A stretch of 64,000 nucleotides of DNA, from NCBI GenBank assembly GCA_012519425.1, contig JAAYQF010000011.1, positions 10,658-74,657 on the forward strand, read 5' to 3'. A model generated the notes under the pieces. The model searched no databases. It was not told where the DNA came from and was given only the letters and a program-made list of their open reading frames with translations. Origin of the DNA: Bacteroidales bacterium (lineage in GTDB: Bacteria; Bacteroidota; Bacteroidia; Bacteroidales; Paludibacteraceae). This document shows positions 1,959-47,001 of the stretch, in pieces. Position 1 is the stretch's first letter. Every line of letters begins with the position of its first letter. A program made the position numbers and the translations under genes.

Positions 1959-2690
1959 TTAATTCAGTTTAAAGTTATATGTAATGGTTCCGGTAACTGT
2001 TCCTTTACCGGATGAAAATCTGGTTTTTTTGGCTGCCTCTATGGCAGAATTTCTTATGGTGTTATCAGAAATGGTTCCTTTTTGTATCCGGGCACTGATC
2101 ACTTCTCCGGCATCATTGACACGTATTTCCACTGTCAAATAGCCTTCTGTGTTTGTACTATAGGCTGGTCGCGGCATTGAGCCTAACAAACCTCTACCGT
2201 CTAAAGTCCAGGAGTTGCCATCCATGTTTCCTTTGCCGACAGGGTTCCCTGCAATCGTTTCGCCTGTAGTCCGACCACTCCCACCGGTAGAAGAGTTGAA
2301 TAAATCTCCCATCAGTTCCTCAGCCTGTTGTGCTGCCCGTCTTTCTTCTTGTAATCTTCGCTCAGCTTCAGTCCTGGCAGCTTCTTCTTGTCTTCGCTTA
2401 GCGTCAGAAAGTGCAACGGACGCGTCTTCTTGCGTCAACACATCTTCGTCCTTTTCTTGTGCTGTTGTTGAAGATGATTGTTCCACGCGTTGTACGCTTG
2501 TCTCTACTGTTCCCCCACCTTCAACTGCGTCTCCAAAACTGATCATCAGACCACCATCTTCCTCATGTTGTAATTCGGGCAATACCACGAAGAACAATAT
2601 GAGCAGGATGATTATCACACTGACAATAGTCCCTGTCCAGGCATACAATTTTGATTTGGGAAATTTATGTAAAAACTTGTCAATTCGCAT
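1959..2690 (-). CDS. TonB family energy transducer (N-terminal TM anchor, TonB C-terminal domain)
   Basis: Single TM helix, charged linker and C-terminal beta-alpha-beta fold, downstream of exbBD. Start placed at the internal ATG (MRIDKF) just after the exbD stop. Confidence 0.8.
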   Translation of the reverse strand: MRIDKFLHKFPKSKLYAWTGTIVSVIIILLILFFVVLPELQHEEDGGLMISFGDAVEGGGTVETSVQRVEQSSSTTAQEKDEDVLTQEDASVALSDAKRRQEEAARTEAERRLQEERRAAQQAEELMGDLFNSSTGGSGRTTGETIAGNPVGKGNMDGNSWTLDGRGLLGSMPRPAYSTNTEGYLTVEIRVNDAGEVISARIQKGTISDNTIRNSAIEAAKKTRFSSGKGTVTGTITYNFKLN

Positions 2691-2694
2691 ATTG

Positions 2695-3111
2695 CTATCT
2701 TTCTGATGCTCTCGTTGCAACCACTAATTTAAGTTTATGTTGATTAGCTATGTCCAATACCCTGACCACCTCTTTGTAAGCAATTTGTTGGTCGGCATGA
2801 AGCGCAATATATGTTGTGGAATCTTGTGCAACCAAATCTAAAATATATGACTCTAACATTTCCGGAGCTATCTGTGTTGGTCTTTCTGTTCCTTTGGCAA
2901 CGAAGAACCGCCCGTTTCCATCTATCGATACCTTAGCTACTACGGATCTTGTAGAGGTGGTTGACCTGCTCTGTGGTAGGTTAAGTTTGATGTCGTTAGG
3001 CGACGACATGGTAGAAGCTATGATGAAAAACAGAAGCAACAGAAAAATTATGTCTGTCATGGACGACATGGAAAAACCGGCTTCAGCTTTTAAGTTTTTT
3101 TTGATGGCCAT
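2695..3111 (-). CDS. exbD: Biopolymer transporter ExbD
   Basis: MSSMTDIIFLLLLFF TM segment with conserved Asp; LHADQQIAYKEVVRVLD. Confidence 0.93.
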   Translation of the reverse strand: MAIKKNLKAEAGFSMSSMTDIIFLLLLFFIIASTMSSPNDIKLNLPQSRSTTSTRSVVAKVSIDGNGRFFVAKGTERPTQIAPEMLESYILDLVAQDSTTYIALHADQQIAYKEVVRVLDIANQHKLKLVVATRASER

Positions 3112-6405: not shown

Positions 6406-8865
6406 GTGCAACTCGTGAAAATTGCCCATATCATTGGCTCTAAAGCGGATATTCCTAAAGATATCGAGATTAACTGGTTGTTAACTGACAGTCGTTCGTT
6501 GACATTTCCGGCCAAAAGCCTGTTTTTTGCACTTGTTAGTCAGAGAAACAACGGGCATCGGTATATTCAGGATTTGTACCGTCAAGGTGTACGCTTCTTT
6601 GTTATCAGTGAGTTGCGTCCCGAATTTAAGACCATGCGGGATGCTTTTTTCTTACAAGTTGAAGACACCTTGGAGGCTCTGCAACAAATTGCTACAGCCC
6701 ATCGGTCTGTTTTTGACATACCGGTTGTAGGCATAACAGGCAGCAACGGCAAAACCATTGTCAAAGAATGGCTCTTTCAATTGCTTCATGAAGATTTTGA
6801 AATGGTGCGCTCACCTCGTAGTTACAACTCCCAGATTGGCGTTCCTTTATCGGTTTGGCAACTGAAGAGTGATACGGAATTGGCTGTTTTTGAAGCGGGT
6901 ATCTCCAAACCGGGCGAGATGGAGCGCTTGGAACGTATCGTTCGTCCTACCATCGGTATCTTTACCAACATAGGAGATGCACATCAGGAAAATTTCTCCG
7001 ATTATCCTGAAAAAATAAGAGAAAAACTACAATTGTTTACGCATTCCAAATATATCATTTATTGCAGTGATAACCCTGTGCTTCATGCTGAAATGACCCG
7101 TATTAAAACGAAAGGTACCTTGTTGAGTTGGGGGAAGTCACCAGATAATTATGTGCAATTGATTGAAGCGCAAAAAGTAAATGGTAAAACTAATTTATTG
7201 GTTCAATGGCAAAATGTAAAATTTACTTTTTGCATACCTTTTACGGATGATGCATCGGTTGAAAATGCTATGCATTGCATTACGTTTATGCACCATTTTA
7301 AATATACACCGGAAGCAATCAATCAAAGGCTGTTACACTTAGAAAGTGTCGCTATGCGATTGGAACTCAAGCAGGGAGTTCGGGAGTGTTTGTTGATTAA
7401 TGATAGCTATAACGCTGATTTAAACGCCCTGAATATTGCTTTGGATTTTTTATCTCAGCAAGCCGTGTCCAAACAATTATCCAAAACCATTATCCTGTCT
7501 GATATTTTGCAAAGCGGTTTTAGGTCAGATGAGTTGTATAAGCATGTGGCCGTACTTATGAAAGCCAAGAATATTCACAGATTTATTGGGGTAGGAGAGG
7601 AACTTTTAAAGCATGCCGAATTATTTGCCGGCATTGATGCACAATTCTTTTCCACAACCGAAGAATTACTGCAGGATGCTGTGATGCTGAGTTTTAGAAA
7701 CGAAGCTATTTTGCTGAAAGGCTCAAGAAAGTTTGAGTTTGAAAAAATTTCGCACAGGTTGGAGTTAATTGCACATGAGACCGTGTTGGAAGTCGATCTC
7801 AATGCATTAATTGAGAACTTGAATTATTTCAGATCAAAATTATCCGAGGAAACTAAAATCATGTGCATGGTCAAAGCCTTTGGATATGGAAGTGGTTCCA
7901 TCGAAATCGCCAAGGCTTTGCAACACCATCGGGCAGATTATTTGGCTGTTGCAGTTGCAGATGAAGGCGCAGAACTCCGTCGTTCAGGCATTCATATTCC
8001 TATTGTGGTAATGAATCCCGAAAAAAGCACATTCGATGTATTGTTTGAAAACAATTTAGAACCTGAGATTTACAGCTTTAATCTGCTAAAGGCATTCGTC
8101 AATGCTGCCGGCAAGTTGGGTTTGACCGATTATCCCATTCATGTCAAAATAGATACAGGCATGCATCGCCTCGGTTTTGAACCTGAAGACATGGCTGAAT
8201 TGATCCAGTATTTAAAACAATGCAACCAGGTGAAGGTAAAGTCAGTTTTTACCCATTTGGCGGGTGCGGATGATGAGCAATTGGATGATTTCACCCATCA
8301 GCAAATGAGGATTTTTACCTTTTGCACCCGGCAATTTACAAAGGCTTTTTCCCATCCTATCATCAGACATATACTCAATTCAGCGGGAATAGAACGCTTT
8401 CCGGAATATCAACTGGACATGGTGAGATTAGGTATCGGTCATTATGGTATTTCAGCTTTACCGGATGTGCATTTGCAACAAGTTTGTGCCCTGAAAACCA
8501 TTATACTGCAATTGAAAAAGGTGAAATCCGGCGAAACAGTCGGCTACAGTCGCAATGGCAAGGTTGAAACAGACAAGTTGATCGCCACCCTTCCCATAGG
8601 TTATGCAGACGGTTATGACAGGAAGTTAAGCAACGGCATAGGGAAGGTTTATGTACAAGGACAATATGCGCCGGTAATAGGCAATATTTCTATGGATCTG
8701 ACGGCGGTGGATGTGACCGGGTTGGATGTTAGCGAAGGCGATGTAGTGGAAATCTTTGGTGAAAATATTAGTATTTCAACCTTGGCAAAAAAACTTGATA
8801 CCATTCCTTATGAGATTTTAACTTCGGTGTCGAGGAGGGTGAAGAGGGTGTATTTTCAGGAATAG
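6406..8865 (+). CDS. alr: Bifunctional MurF-like ligase / alanine racemase
   Basis: N-terminal GITGSNGKT Mur-ligase fold; C-terminal VKAFGYG (PLP Lys), HVKIDTGMHRLG, IGYADG. GTG start. The fusion is common in Bacteroidota. Confidence 0.93.
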   Translation: MQLVKIAHIIGSKADIPKDIEINWLLTDSRSLTFPAKSLFFALVSQRNNGHRYIQDLYRQGVRFFVISELRPEFKTMRDAFFLQVEDTLEALQQIATAHRSVFDIPVVGITGSNGKTIVKEWLFQLLHEDFEMVRSPRSYNSQIGVPLSVWQLKSDTELAVFEAGISKPGEMERLERIVRPTIGIFTNIGDAHQENFSDYPEKIREKLQLFTHSKYIIYCSDNPVLHAEMTRIKTKGTLLSWGKSPDNYVQLIEAQKVNGKTNLLVQWQNVKFTFCIPFTDDASVENAMHCITFMHHFKYTPEAINQRLLHLESVAMRLELKQGVRECLLINDSYNADLNALNIALDFLSQQAVSKQLSKTIILSDILQSGFRSDELYKHVAVLMKAKNIHRFIGVGEELLKHAELFAGIDAQFFSTTEELLQDAVMLSFRNEAILLKGSRKFEFEKISHRLELIAHETVLEVDLNALIENLNYFRSKLSEETKIMCMVKAFGYGSGSIEIAKALQHHRADYLAVAVADEGAELRRSGIHIPIVVMNPEKSTFDVLFENNLEPEIYSFNLLKAFVNAAGKLGLTDYPIHVKIDTGMHRLGFEPEDMAELIQYLKQCNQVKVKSVFTHLAGADDEQLDDFTHQQMRIFTFCTRQFTKAFSHPIIRHILNSAGIERFPEYQLDMVRLGIGHYGISALPDVHLQQVCALKTIILQLKKVKSGETVGYSRNGKVETDKLIATLPIGYADGYDRKLSNGIGKVYVQGQYAPVIGNISMDLTAVDVTGLDVSEGDVVEIFGENISISTLAKKLDTIPYEILTSVSRRVKRVYFQE

Positions 8866-8866
8866 G

Positions 8867-9010
8867 GGTCCGCGGTCCGTGGTCCGTGGATGCGTGGTAC
8901 GGGTTCCGCGGTAGCGCGGTCGCGAGTTCGCAATTTTTTTGAGCGAAGCGTATATGGCTTGGTTTTTTTGTTTCGTTTTTTTGTATCAAGACAAAACATG
9001 AAGAGGAATG
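8867..9010 (+). repeat. Repeat-system locus E1: GC-rich heptamer tract plus 3' pseudoknot module
   Basis: GGTCCGC GGTCCGT GGTCCGT ... GTTCCGC directly after the alr stop, then TTTTTGAGCGAAGCG and TCAAGACAAAACATGAAG, which resemble the 14.9 and 35.9 kb copies. Confidence 0.8.
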
Positions 9011-12362: not shown

Positions 12363-12387
12363 CGACCTCGTCCGATGAGCCAAAAAA
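12363..12387 (+). repeat. Repeat-system fragment (5' segment of the 14.9-kb element)
   Basis: CGACCTCGTCCGATGAGCCAAAAAA matches the reverse complement of 15019-15043 at 24/25 nt. Confidence 0.8.
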
Positions 12388-14793: not shown

Positions 14794-14823
14794 AGAAGAC
14801 GGTTAAAAATTAAATTTCGAAGA

Positions 14824-14853
14824 GAGCTGCCTCATTTTGAGACAGCTCTTTTT
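14824..14853 (+). terminator. Intrinsic terminator after hsp20
   Basis: GAGCTGCCTCA-TTT-TGAGACAGCTC followed by TTTTT. Confidence 0.75.
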
Positions 14854-14861
14854 GCTTTATC

Positions 14862-15100
14862 ACTTCTCTTCATTTTTTGGCTTGAACCAAAAAACGAAGC
14901 AAAAAAGTTCAAGACTGCGCCCGCTTCGCTCAAAAAATTAGCGCTCGAACAGCTAAATCGTCCAAACTCGCAACTTCGTTGCTCAAACAAGGACGATTCT
15001 TAACGCTGTTCTCACTTATTTTTTGGCTCACCGGACGAGGTCGGTTTGCGTTGTACAACGTAACCCCCGGAACACGCACCGCGTAACTCGTAACTTAACC
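14862..15100 (-). repeat. Repeat-system locus E2: longest copy of the structured element (candidate ncRNA or ssDNA element)
   Basis: Nested inverted repeats (GAACAGC/GCTGTTC, AATCGTCC/GGACGATT, GCAAC-GAA-GTTGC), a 3' pseudoknot and a 5' heptamer tract; partial copies at 8.9, 12.4 and 35.9 kb. Confidence 0.8.
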
Positions 15101-15224
15101 ACTTTTCATTATCACAAAAATGATATTGTTGAATATTCAATGAATAAGTTTTCATGGTTGGTGCAAAAGGTAAAAATATTTTCATCTTTTTACTTTTTGC
15201 GTGCATTTTTTCATTTTAACAAGA

Positions 15225-23376: not shown

Positions 23377-24527
23377 AAACCAAAAGAACGAAATATAGAA
23401 AATCTTCTAAATCAGCAAATTTGCTTGGGACAACCCAAATATTGCTGCATGCCAATCGAATTTTAATCGGGTTGCTCTTTGTCTTTTCAGGTTTTGTAAA
23501 AGCCGTTGATCCTTTAGGAACCGTCTATAAAATCGAAGATTATTTGATTGCATTTGACGGTTTTTTTGTTGGCCTGACGTTTTTGGCTTTTCCCGCTGCC
23601 ATTTGTTTGATTGCTTTAGAGCTTTTGATTGGATTGAATTTGCTGTTTAAAGTATGGCCTAAAATAACAAGTTGGATTGCCTTGGTGTTTATGTTGTTCA
23701 TGACCGCATTAACTTTGTACATCGCTATCTATAATCCGGTTTCAGATTGCGGATGTTTCGGTGATGCACTTGTCATCTCCAATTGGCAGACCTTCTTTAA
23801 AGATGTTGTACTGCTGATCATGATAATTATTCTGCTGTTTGGGAAGAAACAGCTTCGGCCAATCTATCAATCTGGCTTCGAATGGACCTTGGTCGTTCTT
23901 TTTGTCATAGTTGCATTTGGCTTTATGGCTTATAATCTGACACATTTGCCTGTCATTGATTTCAGACCTTATAAAACAGGTGTGAATATTCAGGAAGCTA
24001 TGAGATACCCGGAGGATGCACCGAGGGATGTGTATGAATACGTTTTTACCTACGAAAAGGATGGAATAAAGAGGGAGTTTTCTTTAGAAGAAATTCCTGA
24101 TAGTACCTGGACTTTTATTTCACAAGAAACTAAATTAATATCTGAGGGTTATCAGCCGCCCATACAGGATTTTGAGATCCTTACGGCAAGTTATGAAGAT
24201 CTGACGGATGAAATACTCGAATATCAGGGTGTTACCTACTTAATAATATCTTACGACCTGAGTTTGGCATCCGAAAAAAGTATGGAACGCATCAAATCTT
24301 TTGTGACGCATCAGAGACAGCAAGATCAGGATGTGAAAATATATGCATTGACAGCTTCTTCAACCGATGATATACAGGATTTTAAATTAAAATACGATCT
24401 TGATTTCCCTTTCTATACAACGGATCCCATTACACTTAAAACGATAATTCGGGCCAATCCCGGCGTCATGAAGCTGAAAGCCGGAACGATAAAAGGGAAA
24501 TGGAATTGGAGGCAGATTAAAAATTAA
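23367..24527 (+). CDS. BT_3928 family DoxX/MauE membrane protein with thioredoxin-like C-terminus
   Basis: SGFVKAVDPLG, DCGCFGDA, DFRPYKTG, KTIIRANPG. Confidence 0.88.
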   Translation: MFLKTKRTKYRKSSKSANLLGTTQILLHANRILIGLLFVFSGFVKAVDPLGTVYKIEDYLIAFDGFFVGLTFLAFPAAICLIALELLIGLNLLFKVWPKITSWIALVFMLFMTALTLYIAIYNPVSDCGCFGDALVISNWQTFFKDVVLLIMIIILLFGKKQLRPIYQSGFEWTLVVLFVIVAFGFMAYNLTHLPVIDFRPYKTGVNIQEAMRYPEDAPRDVYEYVFTYEKDGIKREFSLEEIPDSTWTFISQETKLISEGYQPPIQDFEILTASYEDLTDEILEYQGVTYLIISYDLSLASEKSMERIKSFVTHQRQQDQDVKIYALTASSTDDIQDFKLKYDLDFPFYTTDPITLKTIIRANPGVMKLKAGTIKGKWNWRQIKN

Positions 24528-24833
24528 GAACAAAGAACAAAGAACAAAGACAAAGACAAATTGTTTAATGTTTAGTGTTTAATTTTGTTGAATTGTTTAA
24601 TTGTTTAATCGTTTAATCGTTGAATTGTTGAATTGTTGAATTGAGAACAAAAAGTAAAGATAAAAAAACGATGAATGAAGAAGAACAAAGAGCAAAGAAC
24701 AAAGACAAAAGATGAATCAACTAAGAACGAAAAGTGAAGAACGATGAACAAAGAAGACCATGCGACCCCGTAACTTCTCTAACTTCTTTAACTTCTCTAA
24801 CTTCCAAAATATAACTTCAACACTAAAAACTAT
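24528..24833 (-). repeat. Mosaic short-tandem-repeat array A (inverted relative to B and C)
   Basis: (AGAACAA)n, (TGTTTAA)n, (ATTGTTGA)n, (AACTTCTCT)n; 24635-24675 is the exact reverse complement of 40830-40870. Confidence 0.9.
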
Positions 24834-35861: not shown

Positions 35862-36004
35862 ACTTTCTTCATTTTTTTGTCTTGACCGAAGCAAAAAAAA
35901 GTCAAGACTGTGCCCGCTTCGCTCGAGAAATTAACTTCATAATTTGCAATCTTCCGACCTCGGAACCCGCTACCCCGGAACCCGGAACGCGGAACTCGCT
36001 ACTA
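35862..36004 (-). repeat. Repeat-system locus E3: heptamer tract plus shortened pseudoknot module
   Basis: Abuts the uvrA stop; 35903-35924 matches 14910-14931 at 21/22 nt. Confidence 0.85.
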
Positions 36005-40690: not shown

Positions 40691-41067
40691 GGTAGTTAGT
40701 AGTTGGTAGTTAGTAGTTAGTAGTTTTTTTGGAAGTTATTGAAGTTAAAGAAGTTAGGGAAGTTACGGGGTCCGAGGTCCGAGTTCCGCGGTCGCGAGTT
40801 TAGCTTTTGGCTCTTGGCTTTGTTCTTCGTTCATCGTTTTTTTATCTTTACTTTTTGTTCTCAATTCAACGATTCAACAATTCAACGATTCAACAGTTCA
40901 ACGACTCAACAATTCAACAATTCAACAAAATTAAACATTAAACATTAAACATTAAACAATTTGTCTTTACTCTTTTGTCTTTGTTCTTTGCTCTTTGTTC
41001 TTCTTCGTTCTTCGTTTTTAGTTGATCTGTCTTTATTCTTTTGTCTTTGTTCTTTGCTCTTTGTTCT
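40691..41067 (+). repeat. Mosaic short-tandem-repeat array B (most complete copy)
   Basis: (RGTAGTT)5-(GAAGTTANN)4-(NGKTCCG)3-T-rich-(RATTCAAC-like)8-(ATTAAAC)4-(CTTTGTT-like)n; fills the whole intergenic region. Confidence 0.92.
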
Positions 41068-46623: not shown

Positions 46624-46914
46624 GGTAGTTGGTAGTTGGTAGTTAGTAGTTAGTAGTTAGTAGTTAGTAGTTTTGGAAATTAGGGAAGTTAAGGAGAAGT
46701 TAAAGAAGTTAGCGTGTTCCGAGTTCCGGGGTCGCGAGTTTAGCTTTTGGCTTTGTTCTTCGTTCATCGTTCTTCGTTCTTAGTTAAATTTGTCTTTGTT
46801 CTTTTGTCTTTACTCTTTGTTCTCAGTTCAACAATTCAACGATTCAACACTACACACTACACACTACACACTAAACATTAAACAATTTGTCTTTATTCTT
46901 TGCTCTTTGTTCTT
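46624..46914 (+). repeat. Mosaic short-tandem-repeat array C
   Basis: (RGTAGTT)7-(GAAGTTA..)n-heptamers-(ATTCAAC-like)3-(ACTACAC)3-ACTAAAC-ATTAAAC; shares GGTCGCGAGTTTAGCTTTTGGCT with array B. Confidence 0.92.
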
Positions 46915-47001
46915 CAATAAAATCTTGAAAATTGCACAAAATGTTGCAAGTTGTGCAAAATATATCTATTTTTGCAGCCGTAATTTTAAATCCAATCAAA
47001 A

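Follow-up and report, generated by a model that had tools for sequence, protein, structure and literature searches.

The loops of an H-type pseudoknot occupy different grooves: that of stem 2, the deep one, is spanned by loop 1, and the shallow one of stem 1 by loop 3. Consecutive U.A-U triples, accompanied in some species by C+.G-C triples, are described for the telomerase RNA pseudoknot (human P2b-P3 and the pyrimidine-motif triplex of Kluyveromyces lactis) in the accessible part of a review (PMC13541005). The same part of the review reports runs of four to eight U.A-U triples for telomerase RNA, long non-coding RNAs and viral or transposon elements for nuclear expression (ENEs), and its account of prokaryotic RNA triple helices covers a few triples in the SAM-I, SAM-II and preQ1-II riboswitches and the group II introns. 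ENE-like elements also occur in transposable-element RNAs, in plants and in fungi (see PMC12501189). The DNA analysed here, below called the window, is a 64,000-nt stretch of a Bacteroidales bacterium (Paludibacteraceae; assembly GCA_012519425.1, contig JAAYQF010000011.1, positions 10,658 to 74,657). On its minus strand, at 14868-14913, it carries a motif that an initial annotation had drawn as an H-type pseudoknot with triplex potential. The motif belongs to a new family of interspersed, non-coding repeats, made up of a 130-nt rod-like domain and, as 3' structural module, the motif itself. At the level of sequence, comparison of the copies establishes constraint on the second stem of the module (S2), on the length and composition of its U-rich loop (L1) and on its first stem (S1), together with strand specificity and dispersal in many copies.

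Read from 14913 to 14868, the minus strand at this locus (copy A) is CTTGAAC TTTTTTG CTTCGTTTTTTGG TTCAAG CCAAAAAATGAAG, and both the strings and their interleaved order are as the initial annotation had given them. S1a is CTTGAAC (14907-14913; at the family level CTTGAA, 14908-14913), L1 is TTTTTTG, a U run followed by G (14900-14906), and S2a is CTTCGTTTTTTGG, with the base CUUCG, six U residues and the top GG (14887-14899). The 6-nt loop of S2, UUCAAG (14881-14886), doubles as S1b, and S2b is CCAAAAAATGAAG (14868-14880), with the top CC, six A residues and the base UGAAG, which forms a G-U pair with S2a. The boundaries of the two stems had to be corrected: S1b had been drawn as GTTCAAG (14881-14887), which assigned G14887 to both S2a and S1b, and because this nucleotide was counted twice, the top pair of S2 and the seventh of S1 are mutually exclusive. 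C14913 also has a double use, as a base of S1a and as the last base of the rod-closing helix P1 (see below). S2b is followed by a purine-rich tail, AGAAGUG (14861-14867), which is conserved as AGRRRUG in the short forms and has UGGGGU as its long-form counterpart; in contigs the junctions between repeat and flank fall at 14865-14868. An exact 32-mer of the motif is unique and appeared in none of 100 shuffles, so chance would not be expected to produce it. Using a profile made from relatives, nhmmer found exactly three modules in the window, at 14931-14869 (minus strand, copy A, E 2.7e-18), 35924-35870 (minus strand, copy B) and 8941-9002 (plus strand, copy C). Taken by themselves the three copies are weak evidence, and the main support comes from about 70 distinct relatives found elsewhere.

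The evidence for the fold is comparative throughout. Fifty-eight distinct modules were anchored by hand on landmarks (CTTGA, the G ending L1, the next five bases, the pyrimidine run and TCAAG), the 3' arm of S2 being assigned by position only, and the merged alignment, likewise anchored by hand, comprised 69 distinct sequences from two phyla. Many of the aligned sequences are related copies, so the cell counts given here overstate the number of events. S2, with 15 pairs, was 95.9% paired in the 58 modules, 10 of the 15 pairs having changed on both sides, and 96.5% paired in the 69 sequences, in which two-sided changes were seen at 13 of the 15. For S1 and S2 together 95.4% of the cells were paired in the larger set, as against 47-58% in slid controls. 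The base of S2 occurs as CUUCG/UGAAG, CUUAC/GUAAG or GUGAG, AUUAC/GUAAU, CUUCC/GGAAG, CAUAC/GUAUG and GUGAC/GUCAC, and the G-U pair of the CUUCG form is replaced by C-G in the CUUAC subfamily. As judged from the alignment, this covariation proves that S2 is a real helix. The G-T pair of CTTCG/TGAAG works on the minus strand only, being A-C on the other, as had been pointed out. The conclusion drawn from it, that one strand is functional, is borne out by the recurrence of G-U pairs (CUUCG/UGAAG, CUUAC/GUGAG) and by the fold of the whole of copy A, which is 20 kcal/mol better on the minus strand (-73.9 kcal/mol, z -6.15) than on the plus strand (-54 kcal/mol, z -3.55).

In the alignment, the U-rich L1 varies as would be expected of a third strand held by Hoogsteen pairing, in line with the triplex potential originally proposed for it. 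Its length equals that of the S2 U-A tract plus two in 41 of 53 clean modules (Spearman 0.81), and the two lengths shift jointly within subfamilies that share the same base (4/6, 6/8 and 7/9 with CUUCG; 5/7 and 6/8 with CUUAC); this 1:1 relation favours base-by-base contact over a passive linker. L1 is pure U ending in G, save for an internal C where the S2 tract holds a C-G pair, and this C is at the mirror position to the C-G pair, as in UUUCUUU G CUUAC UUUCUU (L108) and UUUUCUU G AUUAC UUCUUU (L131 and L137). The rule is carried by four haplotypes, namely L108, L131/L137 and the Burkholderiales types UUUCUUU and UUCUUUU/UUUUCUU (see below). In the anchored parallel register the tally was 399 U.A-U, 11 C.G-C, three U over G-C and no C over A-U. 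For a third strand to lie parallel to the purine strand, the two pyrimidine runs must be mirror-symmetric, as they are; if L1 instead formed Watson-Crick pairs with the A tract as its second partner, a direct repeat would be necessary, and the asymmetric haplotypes would give a C.A mismatch. The pattern indicates, as far as sequence comparison can, what a parallel U.A-U/C+.G-C major-groove triplex requires, and such a triplex may well form in the cell.

The same region can be read as having no triplex, with L1 paired to the purine tail 3' of S2 (AGRRRU or UGGGGU) in one long bulged hairpin to which S1 is incidental. In its favour, ACUUUU is paired with AGAAGU in both the minimum free energy (MFE) structure and the centroid of copy A, almost every copy has a purine-rich tail, and in L064, an odd Bacteroidales copy, UGGCU is perfectly complementary to the tail AGCCA. 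Such pairing does not account for the length of L1, which follows the S2 tract, whereas the tail (GGGG) is constant, nor for the avoidance of C in L1, although C-G would be the stronger pair; C is present only where it mirrors an interruption of S2. Long forms would need five consecutive U-G wobbles, and the Burkholderiales tail (YGGCU) cannot pair with UUUCUUU. We regard the bulged hairpin as quite unlikely.

An independent, unplanned test of the triplex pattern came from sequences that had been supposed to be chance matches of the first search pattern. A generic search of the fetched loci for hairpins with an interrupted pyrimidine arm revealed in Oxalobacteraceae (Herbaspirillum, Herminiimonas and Undibacterium) a repeat whose module is of the same kind, its S2 having the familiar base CUUAC. 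Loci with the Burkholderiales repeat are L013, L014, L032, L043, L045, L048, L066, L067, L085, L089, L094, L096 and L097, together with 1270-1560 of L238. The 5' part of the module reads GGUCGCC, then UUUCUUUG or UUCUUUUG, then CUUAC, and is followed by UUUCUUU or UUUUCUU, GGCGAAGC, AAAGAAA or AAGAAAA, GUGAG and a G+C hairpin (GCCGGG/CCCGGC). L1 again mirrors the S2a run, the asymmetric type being the informative one. Variovorax paradoxus VAI-C (CP063167.1, about 174.0-174.3 kb) carries the same module, and by these sequence comparisons the module is present in two bacterial phyla. Upstream of the Variovorax repeat there are three GGCC-GAGCG(A/C)AGCGA-GGCC boxes.

S1 fared less uniformly than S2. 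In the 58 Bacteroidales modules the pair next to the junction was C-G in 26, U-A in 18, A-U in six, U-G in three and something else in five, the remainder of S1 being nearly invariant and so uninformative; in the merged set the junction pair was C-G in 35, U-A in 19 and A-U in six. Over the 69 sequences five of the six S1 pairs had changed on both sides, with a weak distal pair (14 unpaired cells). The stem exists in four unrelated sequence versions: the main one, the Burkholderiales type (UCGCC/GGCGA, with a compensatory CCGCC/GGCGG in three copies) and those of two odd Bacteroidales copies, L073 (GCC/GGC) and L064 (UGGCU/AGCUA). Covariation at the junction pair and the unrelated complementary versions uphold S1, whereas its full length of 7 bp alongside a full S2 could not be upheld. 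In copy A the 6-nt loop is wholly complementary to S1a, and because of this a 7-bp S1 and a 13-bp S2 cannot coexist, no connecting nucleotides being left. It is plausible from the aligned loops that in the Bacteroidales copies three to five junction-proximal pairs form and the remaining loop bases serve as linker.

The lack of linker nucleotides between S1b and S2 in copy A would also suit a conformational switch, in which S1 and S2 are mutually exclusive hairpins and the S1 hairpin encloses L1 and S2a. That both stems covary agrees with this, as does copy B, which has no S2a and keeps a perfect S1 (GTCTTGAC/GTCAAGAC), though its MFE structure pairs CGAAGC with GCUUCG. A switch is at odds with the layout in the Burkholderiales repeat, L073 and L064, where the loop has 7-8 nt and S1 uses the first three to five of them, so that a 3-nt linker remains, as in a true H-type pseudoknot; in the Burkholderiales copies, with S1 taking the first five of eight loop bases, the pseudoknot is sterically sound. 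In addition, the strongest S1 covariation is at the junction-proximal pair, and no shared effector, leader or downstream gene to be controlled was found when the neighbouring open reading frames (ORFs) were clustered. A switch has, in our judgement, little chance of being correct.

Taking into account these properties, the following fold is proposed. S2 would be a hairpin of 12-14 bp, made up of a variable base of 5 bp, an uninterrupted tract of four to eight U-A pairs and zero to two top pairs. The U run of L1 would lie in the major groove of the U-A tract, parallel to the A strand, and form U.A-U triples, with a C+.G-C triple at any C-G pair of S2. The G that ends L1 would span the remaining 5 bp of the deep groove down to the foot of S2. 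By Pleij's rule one or two nucleotides can span 5-7 bp of the deep groove, and a single G can for this reason bridge the base of S2. Finally, S1 would arise by pairing of the three to five bases 5' of L1 with the beginning of the S2 loop, which would place a short H-type pseudoknot on top of the triplex.

The rod-like domain extends over 14913-15042 (minus strand) and comprises the closing helix P1, two inner stems and an apical hairpin, as predicted by RNAalifold. P1 is a long-range helix of GACCUCGUCCGGUGAGCC.AAAAAU with AUUUUU.GAGCGAAGCGGGCGCAGUC (RNAalifold, 20 copies from at least eight species represented by metagenome-assembled genomes, MAGs). Of the 40 pairs of the rod 16 had changed on both sides; 95.2% were paired, compared with 31-43% in slid controls. 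The 3' strand of P1 is an invariant GAGCGAAGCG box (14922-14931, minus strand), in which tandem G.A stands opposite GGUGAGCC. Degenerate G+C-rich tandem repeats of 7-8-mers lie 5' of every copy (15043-15100, minus strand, for copy A). The 5' extensions, of about 55 nt, differ between subfamilies, and the ends of the element are therefore imprecise.

At the other end, the initial annotation had taken the motif for the 3' end of an RNA, which was not borne out. In the short forms from the ADurb MAG the conserved sequence stops about 7 nt past S2, whereas in most relatives conservation runs about 25 nt further as UGGGGUUU and a hairpin GGGG-CAAAG-CCCC; because the conserved sequence continues into this G+C hairpin, S2 is not generally the last element. 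Nor does S2 resemble an intrinsic terminator: it is A-U-rich, and no T run follows either S2 or the downstream hairpin.

Compensatory changes throughout stems that are not terminal also bear on a further view of the family, according to which it is an ordinary palindromic repeat of the MITE (miniature inverted-repeat transposable element) or REP (repetitive extragenic palindromic) kind, bound by protein as duplex DNA, with no folded single strand of importance. The repeat does share with such elements that it is multi-copy, intergenic, non-coding and present in both orientations. Besides the compensatory changes, the conserved G-U pairs and the strand asymmetry of 20 kcal/mol speak against a duplex element, and the symmetry between L1 and S2a is mirror, not inverted, which inverted repeats in duplex DNA do not explain. 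This view is very improbable.

Several other assignments for parts of the repeat were tried and dropped. A Bacteroidetes promoter 5' of the rod was rejected, a TAnnTTTG-like box being found only in a few ADurb copies and not across subfamilies. The CCGGUGA/GAA internal loop resembles a hammerhead or a K-turn, but the third helix or the 3-nt bulge is absent. An alternative stem CGAAGC/GCUUCG, between the box and the base of S2a, was discarded for the Bacteroidales family, in which the box is invariant and the base of S2a covaries only with that of S2b; in the Burkholderiales element such a pairing exists at another place. The rod is replaced or interrupted in some copies. Three ADurb.Bin174 loci (L018, L052, L095) have a nested insert of about 150 nt in place of the apical hairpin, and it occurs in both orientations, the L018 version being the reverse complement of that in L052 and L095. 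In L092 (about 2540-2960, minus strand), L056, L058 and L037 the inner rod has given way to a different, hairpin-rich domain of about 210 nt, with P1 and the 3' module retained; this variant has no Rfam match. The Burkholderiales repeat, of about 280 nt, has a purine/pyrimidine rod of about 20 bp (GAAAAAUGGAAAAAGAAGGAAAAA with UUUUUUUCCUUCCCAUUUUUU), whose apical loop is the GAGCGAAGCG box. Unrelated-looking repeats in Acidobacteriota, Chloroflexota, Alphaproteobacteria and others (L016, L017, L039, L040, L057, L059, L060, L070, L075, L083, L088, L093) share hairpins of the GUCAUCCUGAGCGAAGCGAAGGAUC type, after which come a T run and GCTTCG. From such occurrences the box may be a much wider motif than this repeat family.

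A scan of a genome collection gave about 35 true copies in MAGs of Paludibacteraceae, Salinivirgaceae and other Bacteroidales, including the window's own locus (L027) in the MAG 'Bacteroidetes bacterium ADurb.Bin174'. At least about 85 further copies were obtained from metagenomes in a scan that was anchored only on the rod and the box and left the 3' module unconstrained. No viral contig matched the repeat, and the plasmid collection held no match for the Bacteroidales element, its only match being the Burkholderiales module on a 2.5-Mb Variovorax replicon. Rfam 15 gave no match at the gathering threshold for the window, 18 Bacteroidales loci and 13 Burkholderiales loci, and a permissive scan (E up to 10) returned chance-level matches only. 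In DNA metagenome contigs from anaerobic digesters the repeat had 85-125x the depth of single-copy flanks, corresponding to about 100 copies. In metatranscriptome contigs, which carry neither strand nor ends, the depth ratio of repeat to neighbouring gene was 2-325x; in three of four runs the RNA ratio did not exceed the DNA copy ratio, contig depth being a poor measure.

The upstream gene is on the same strand as the repeat in 64 cases and on the opposite strand in 51, and the downstream gene in 66 and 51, respectively; a gene-linked 5' or 3' element was rejected on this near balance. Among about 720 ORFs neighbouring the roughly 120 copies listed, clustering revealed neither a transposase nor a HUH or tyrosine recombinase nor a reverse transcriptase that recurs; the largest cluster was a spurious ORF running through the repeat itself. 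No empty sites or target-site duplications were found either; all strains that share the flanking proteins carry copies B and C. At the hsp20 site (window 14794-15200 compared with 3441-3990 of L001, L003, L009 and L010) a related element with a different G+C-rich 5' part occupies the intergenic region in the opposite orientation next to an identical Hsp20 protein. This could reflect either independent insertions at a hot spot just past the hsp20 terminator or an inversion followed by divergence.

These genomic data make it necessary to consider DNA as the folded molecule. The same fold in single-stranded DNA or H-DNA would belong to a mobile or recombining DNA repeat, the hairpin, the T.A-T triplex and the GCGAAGC box being recognised or used while the strand is unwound in transposition, replication or recombination. 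Mirror-repeat pyrimidine tracts are the classical H-DNA motif, and both G-T pairs and T.A-T triples can form in DNA; GCGAAGC, which is part of the invariant box, is a very stable DNA mini-hairpin. The dispersal of some 100 copies in either orientation with no excess of RNA per copy, the two orientations at the hsp20 site, the nested inserts and the modular 5' parts all fit a DNA element. The failure to find either a recurrent mobility enzyme near the listed copies or, in strains sharing flanks, a target-site duplication or an empty site does not, and the sequence does occur in metatranscriptome assemblies. Moreover, tolerated G-U pairs, the tandem G.A internal loop and a compensatory rod of 130 nt are more typical of selection at the RNA level. 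A DNA-level role is the main rival to the reading preferred below, though an unlikely one.

According to the reading that we prefer, the folded strand would be RNA rather than single-stranded DNA, and the module, in most relatives together with the small G+C hairpin 3' of it, would give the repeat transcript a compact 3' fold that is nuclease-resistant or recognised by protein. That this fold blocks 3' exonucleases or is bound by a partner, in other words that the module has a protective or a recognition role, is in our opinion slightly more likely than not. A more far-reaching proposal would see in it a mobile cross-phylum module, with a long telomerase- or ENE-like pyrimidine-motif triplex and a pseudoknot, acting as a 3'-end stability element or as a recognition or priming fold for an enzyme that would spread it. 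In the literature searched, such an element would be the first outside eukaryotes and their viruses; this is tentative, and we would sooner expect it to fail than to hold.

A number of observations weigh against the preferred reading. Only four independent informative haplotypes stand behind the register argument, MFE folding pairs part of L1 with the purine-rich 3' tail, the L1 boundary in L064 was set with complementarity in view, and the alignments were anchored by hand. Loop 3, which should cross the minor groove of S1, has 0 nt in copy A. No promoter or terminator is conserved across subfamilies. On the whole, the repeat is present in RNA and not enriched per copy; its neighbours are unrelated housekeeping genes, with the orientation of the repeat near balanced. 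Finally, one subfamily persists with no S1a next to L1. In its members (L132, L134, L142, L185, L194, L212 and L221) a 60-nt insert with two hairpins lies between GCAGUC and L1; S1a is lost, and L1, S2 and the loop GUUAAG are kept, so that the repeat can persist without S1.

Copies B and C are of the short form, in which the G+C-rich repeats are followed by the GAGCGAAGCG box and then by the module. Both are decaying. Copy B (35867-35924, minus strand; repeats of 7-8-mers at 35954-35999, minus strand) consists of the box and the 3' module with no rod and has S2a deleted; its changed but complementary S1 and the loss of the second U run had been noted correctly. The U run was lost through a deletion of 9 nt whose presence varies among strains, L231 retaining the full hairpin; the loss therefore represents decay and not a functional variant. 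Copy C (8941-9003, plus strand; repeats of the 7-mer GGTCCGC at 8865-8931, plus strand) is degenerate: the GT/AC top of S2 is present as described, S1a is mutated (GGCUUGGU) and S2b is damaged by an interruption (ACAAAACATGAAG). An isolated 25-nt fragment of the 5' end of the rod (CGACCTCGTCCGATGAGCCAAAAAA; 12363-12387, plus strand) adjoins a terminator-like hairpin between two convergent genes.

The repeat leaves traces in assemblies and annotations. Many metagenome contigs stop inside copy B, and spurious ORFs of 50-120 amino acids are open through the repeat in several frames (14832-14990 of the window, minus strand, and relatives); one cluster contains nine such 'proteins', tract-length changes shifting the frame. 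The intergenic regions 24526-24804, 40692-41067 and 46625-46961 are mosaics in which different tandem arrays of 7-9-nt units stand side by side (e.g. AAGAACA, AATTGTTT x10, GTAGTTA x7, CAATTCAA x8 and TTTGTTC x15), and the G+C-rich 7-8-mers 5' of each copy of the element resemble them.

If the proposed fold is correct, the module would extend runs of such triples to bacteria, with three-way covariation kept in two phyla, provide a natural series of length and C+.G-C variants for biophysics, and point to a partner, which might be a nuclease barrier, a binding protein or a mobilising enzyme and would account for the spread of some 100 copies. Direct testing is possible, cultivable Herbaspirillum and Variovorax paradoxus being carriers. 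For annotation, the family gives a name to a repeat that breaks digester Bacteroidales assemblies and yields spurious ORFs. Literature searches with the strings of the conserved boxes returned no relevant paper, and as far as these searches show, a telomerase-type fold has not been described before in bacterial repeats.

The closest structural parallel is with telomerase RNA. The fold proposed here is, as there, an H-type pseudoknot whose U-rich loop 1 runs along the major groove of a stem 2 rich in A-U pairs, with the same strand polarity, and the third, Watson-Crick and purine strands obey the same co-variation logic. The module departs from telomerase RNA in that an A-rich loop 3 filling the minor groove of stem 1 is missing (0-3 nt are present), as are a template and TERT. 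It belongs to a multi-copy bacterial repeat, has a longer stem 2 (12-14 bp), and connects its proposed third strand to that stem through a single G. With ENEs and MALAT1-type triple helices it would share a U.A-U run interrupted by C+.G-C, and 3'-end protection, proposed here as a role of the module, is the established role of ENEs. The ENE holds a 3' A-rich tract or poly(A) tail in the clamp of a U-rich internal loop, whereas the A tract of the module is internal to S2, where it serves as the 3' arm; beyond it come the 5-bp base and conserved sequence, often with another hairpin. The host, moreover, is bacterial, and no accumulation of repeat RNA was seen in metatranscriptome contig depth. 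The SAM-II and preQ1-II riboswitches are bacterial H-type pseudoknots with major-groove base triples; the two or three triples of riboswitches surround a ligand pocket, and each riboswitch precedes a defined gene as a single-copy leader, in contrast to the multi-copy module, with no conserved downstream gene and four to eight consecutive triples proposed.

Among genomic repeats, the ERIC, Correia and REP sequences are dispersed and intergenic and form long imperfect hairpins in transcripts. They are, unlike the present family, simple palindromes with terminal inverted repeats, and they have neither mirror-repeat pyrimidine tracts nor a pseudoknot; the Rfam scans gave no match of the repeat to any of them. 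BrickBuilt of Porphyromonas gingivalis (PMC4596501), a composite of a MITE and a minisatellite, is, like the repeat described here, a multi-copy, intergenic, non-coding element of Bacteroidales, in which conserved end pieces are joined to a tandem repeat of short units and which occurs in either orientation. Its unit is 23 nt as against 7-8 nt, it is restricted to one species, and no sequence similarity or comparable fold is reported for it. As a genomic object, the repeat family nonetheless has its nearest counterparts among the composite repeats of Bacteroidales, BrickBuilt being an example.

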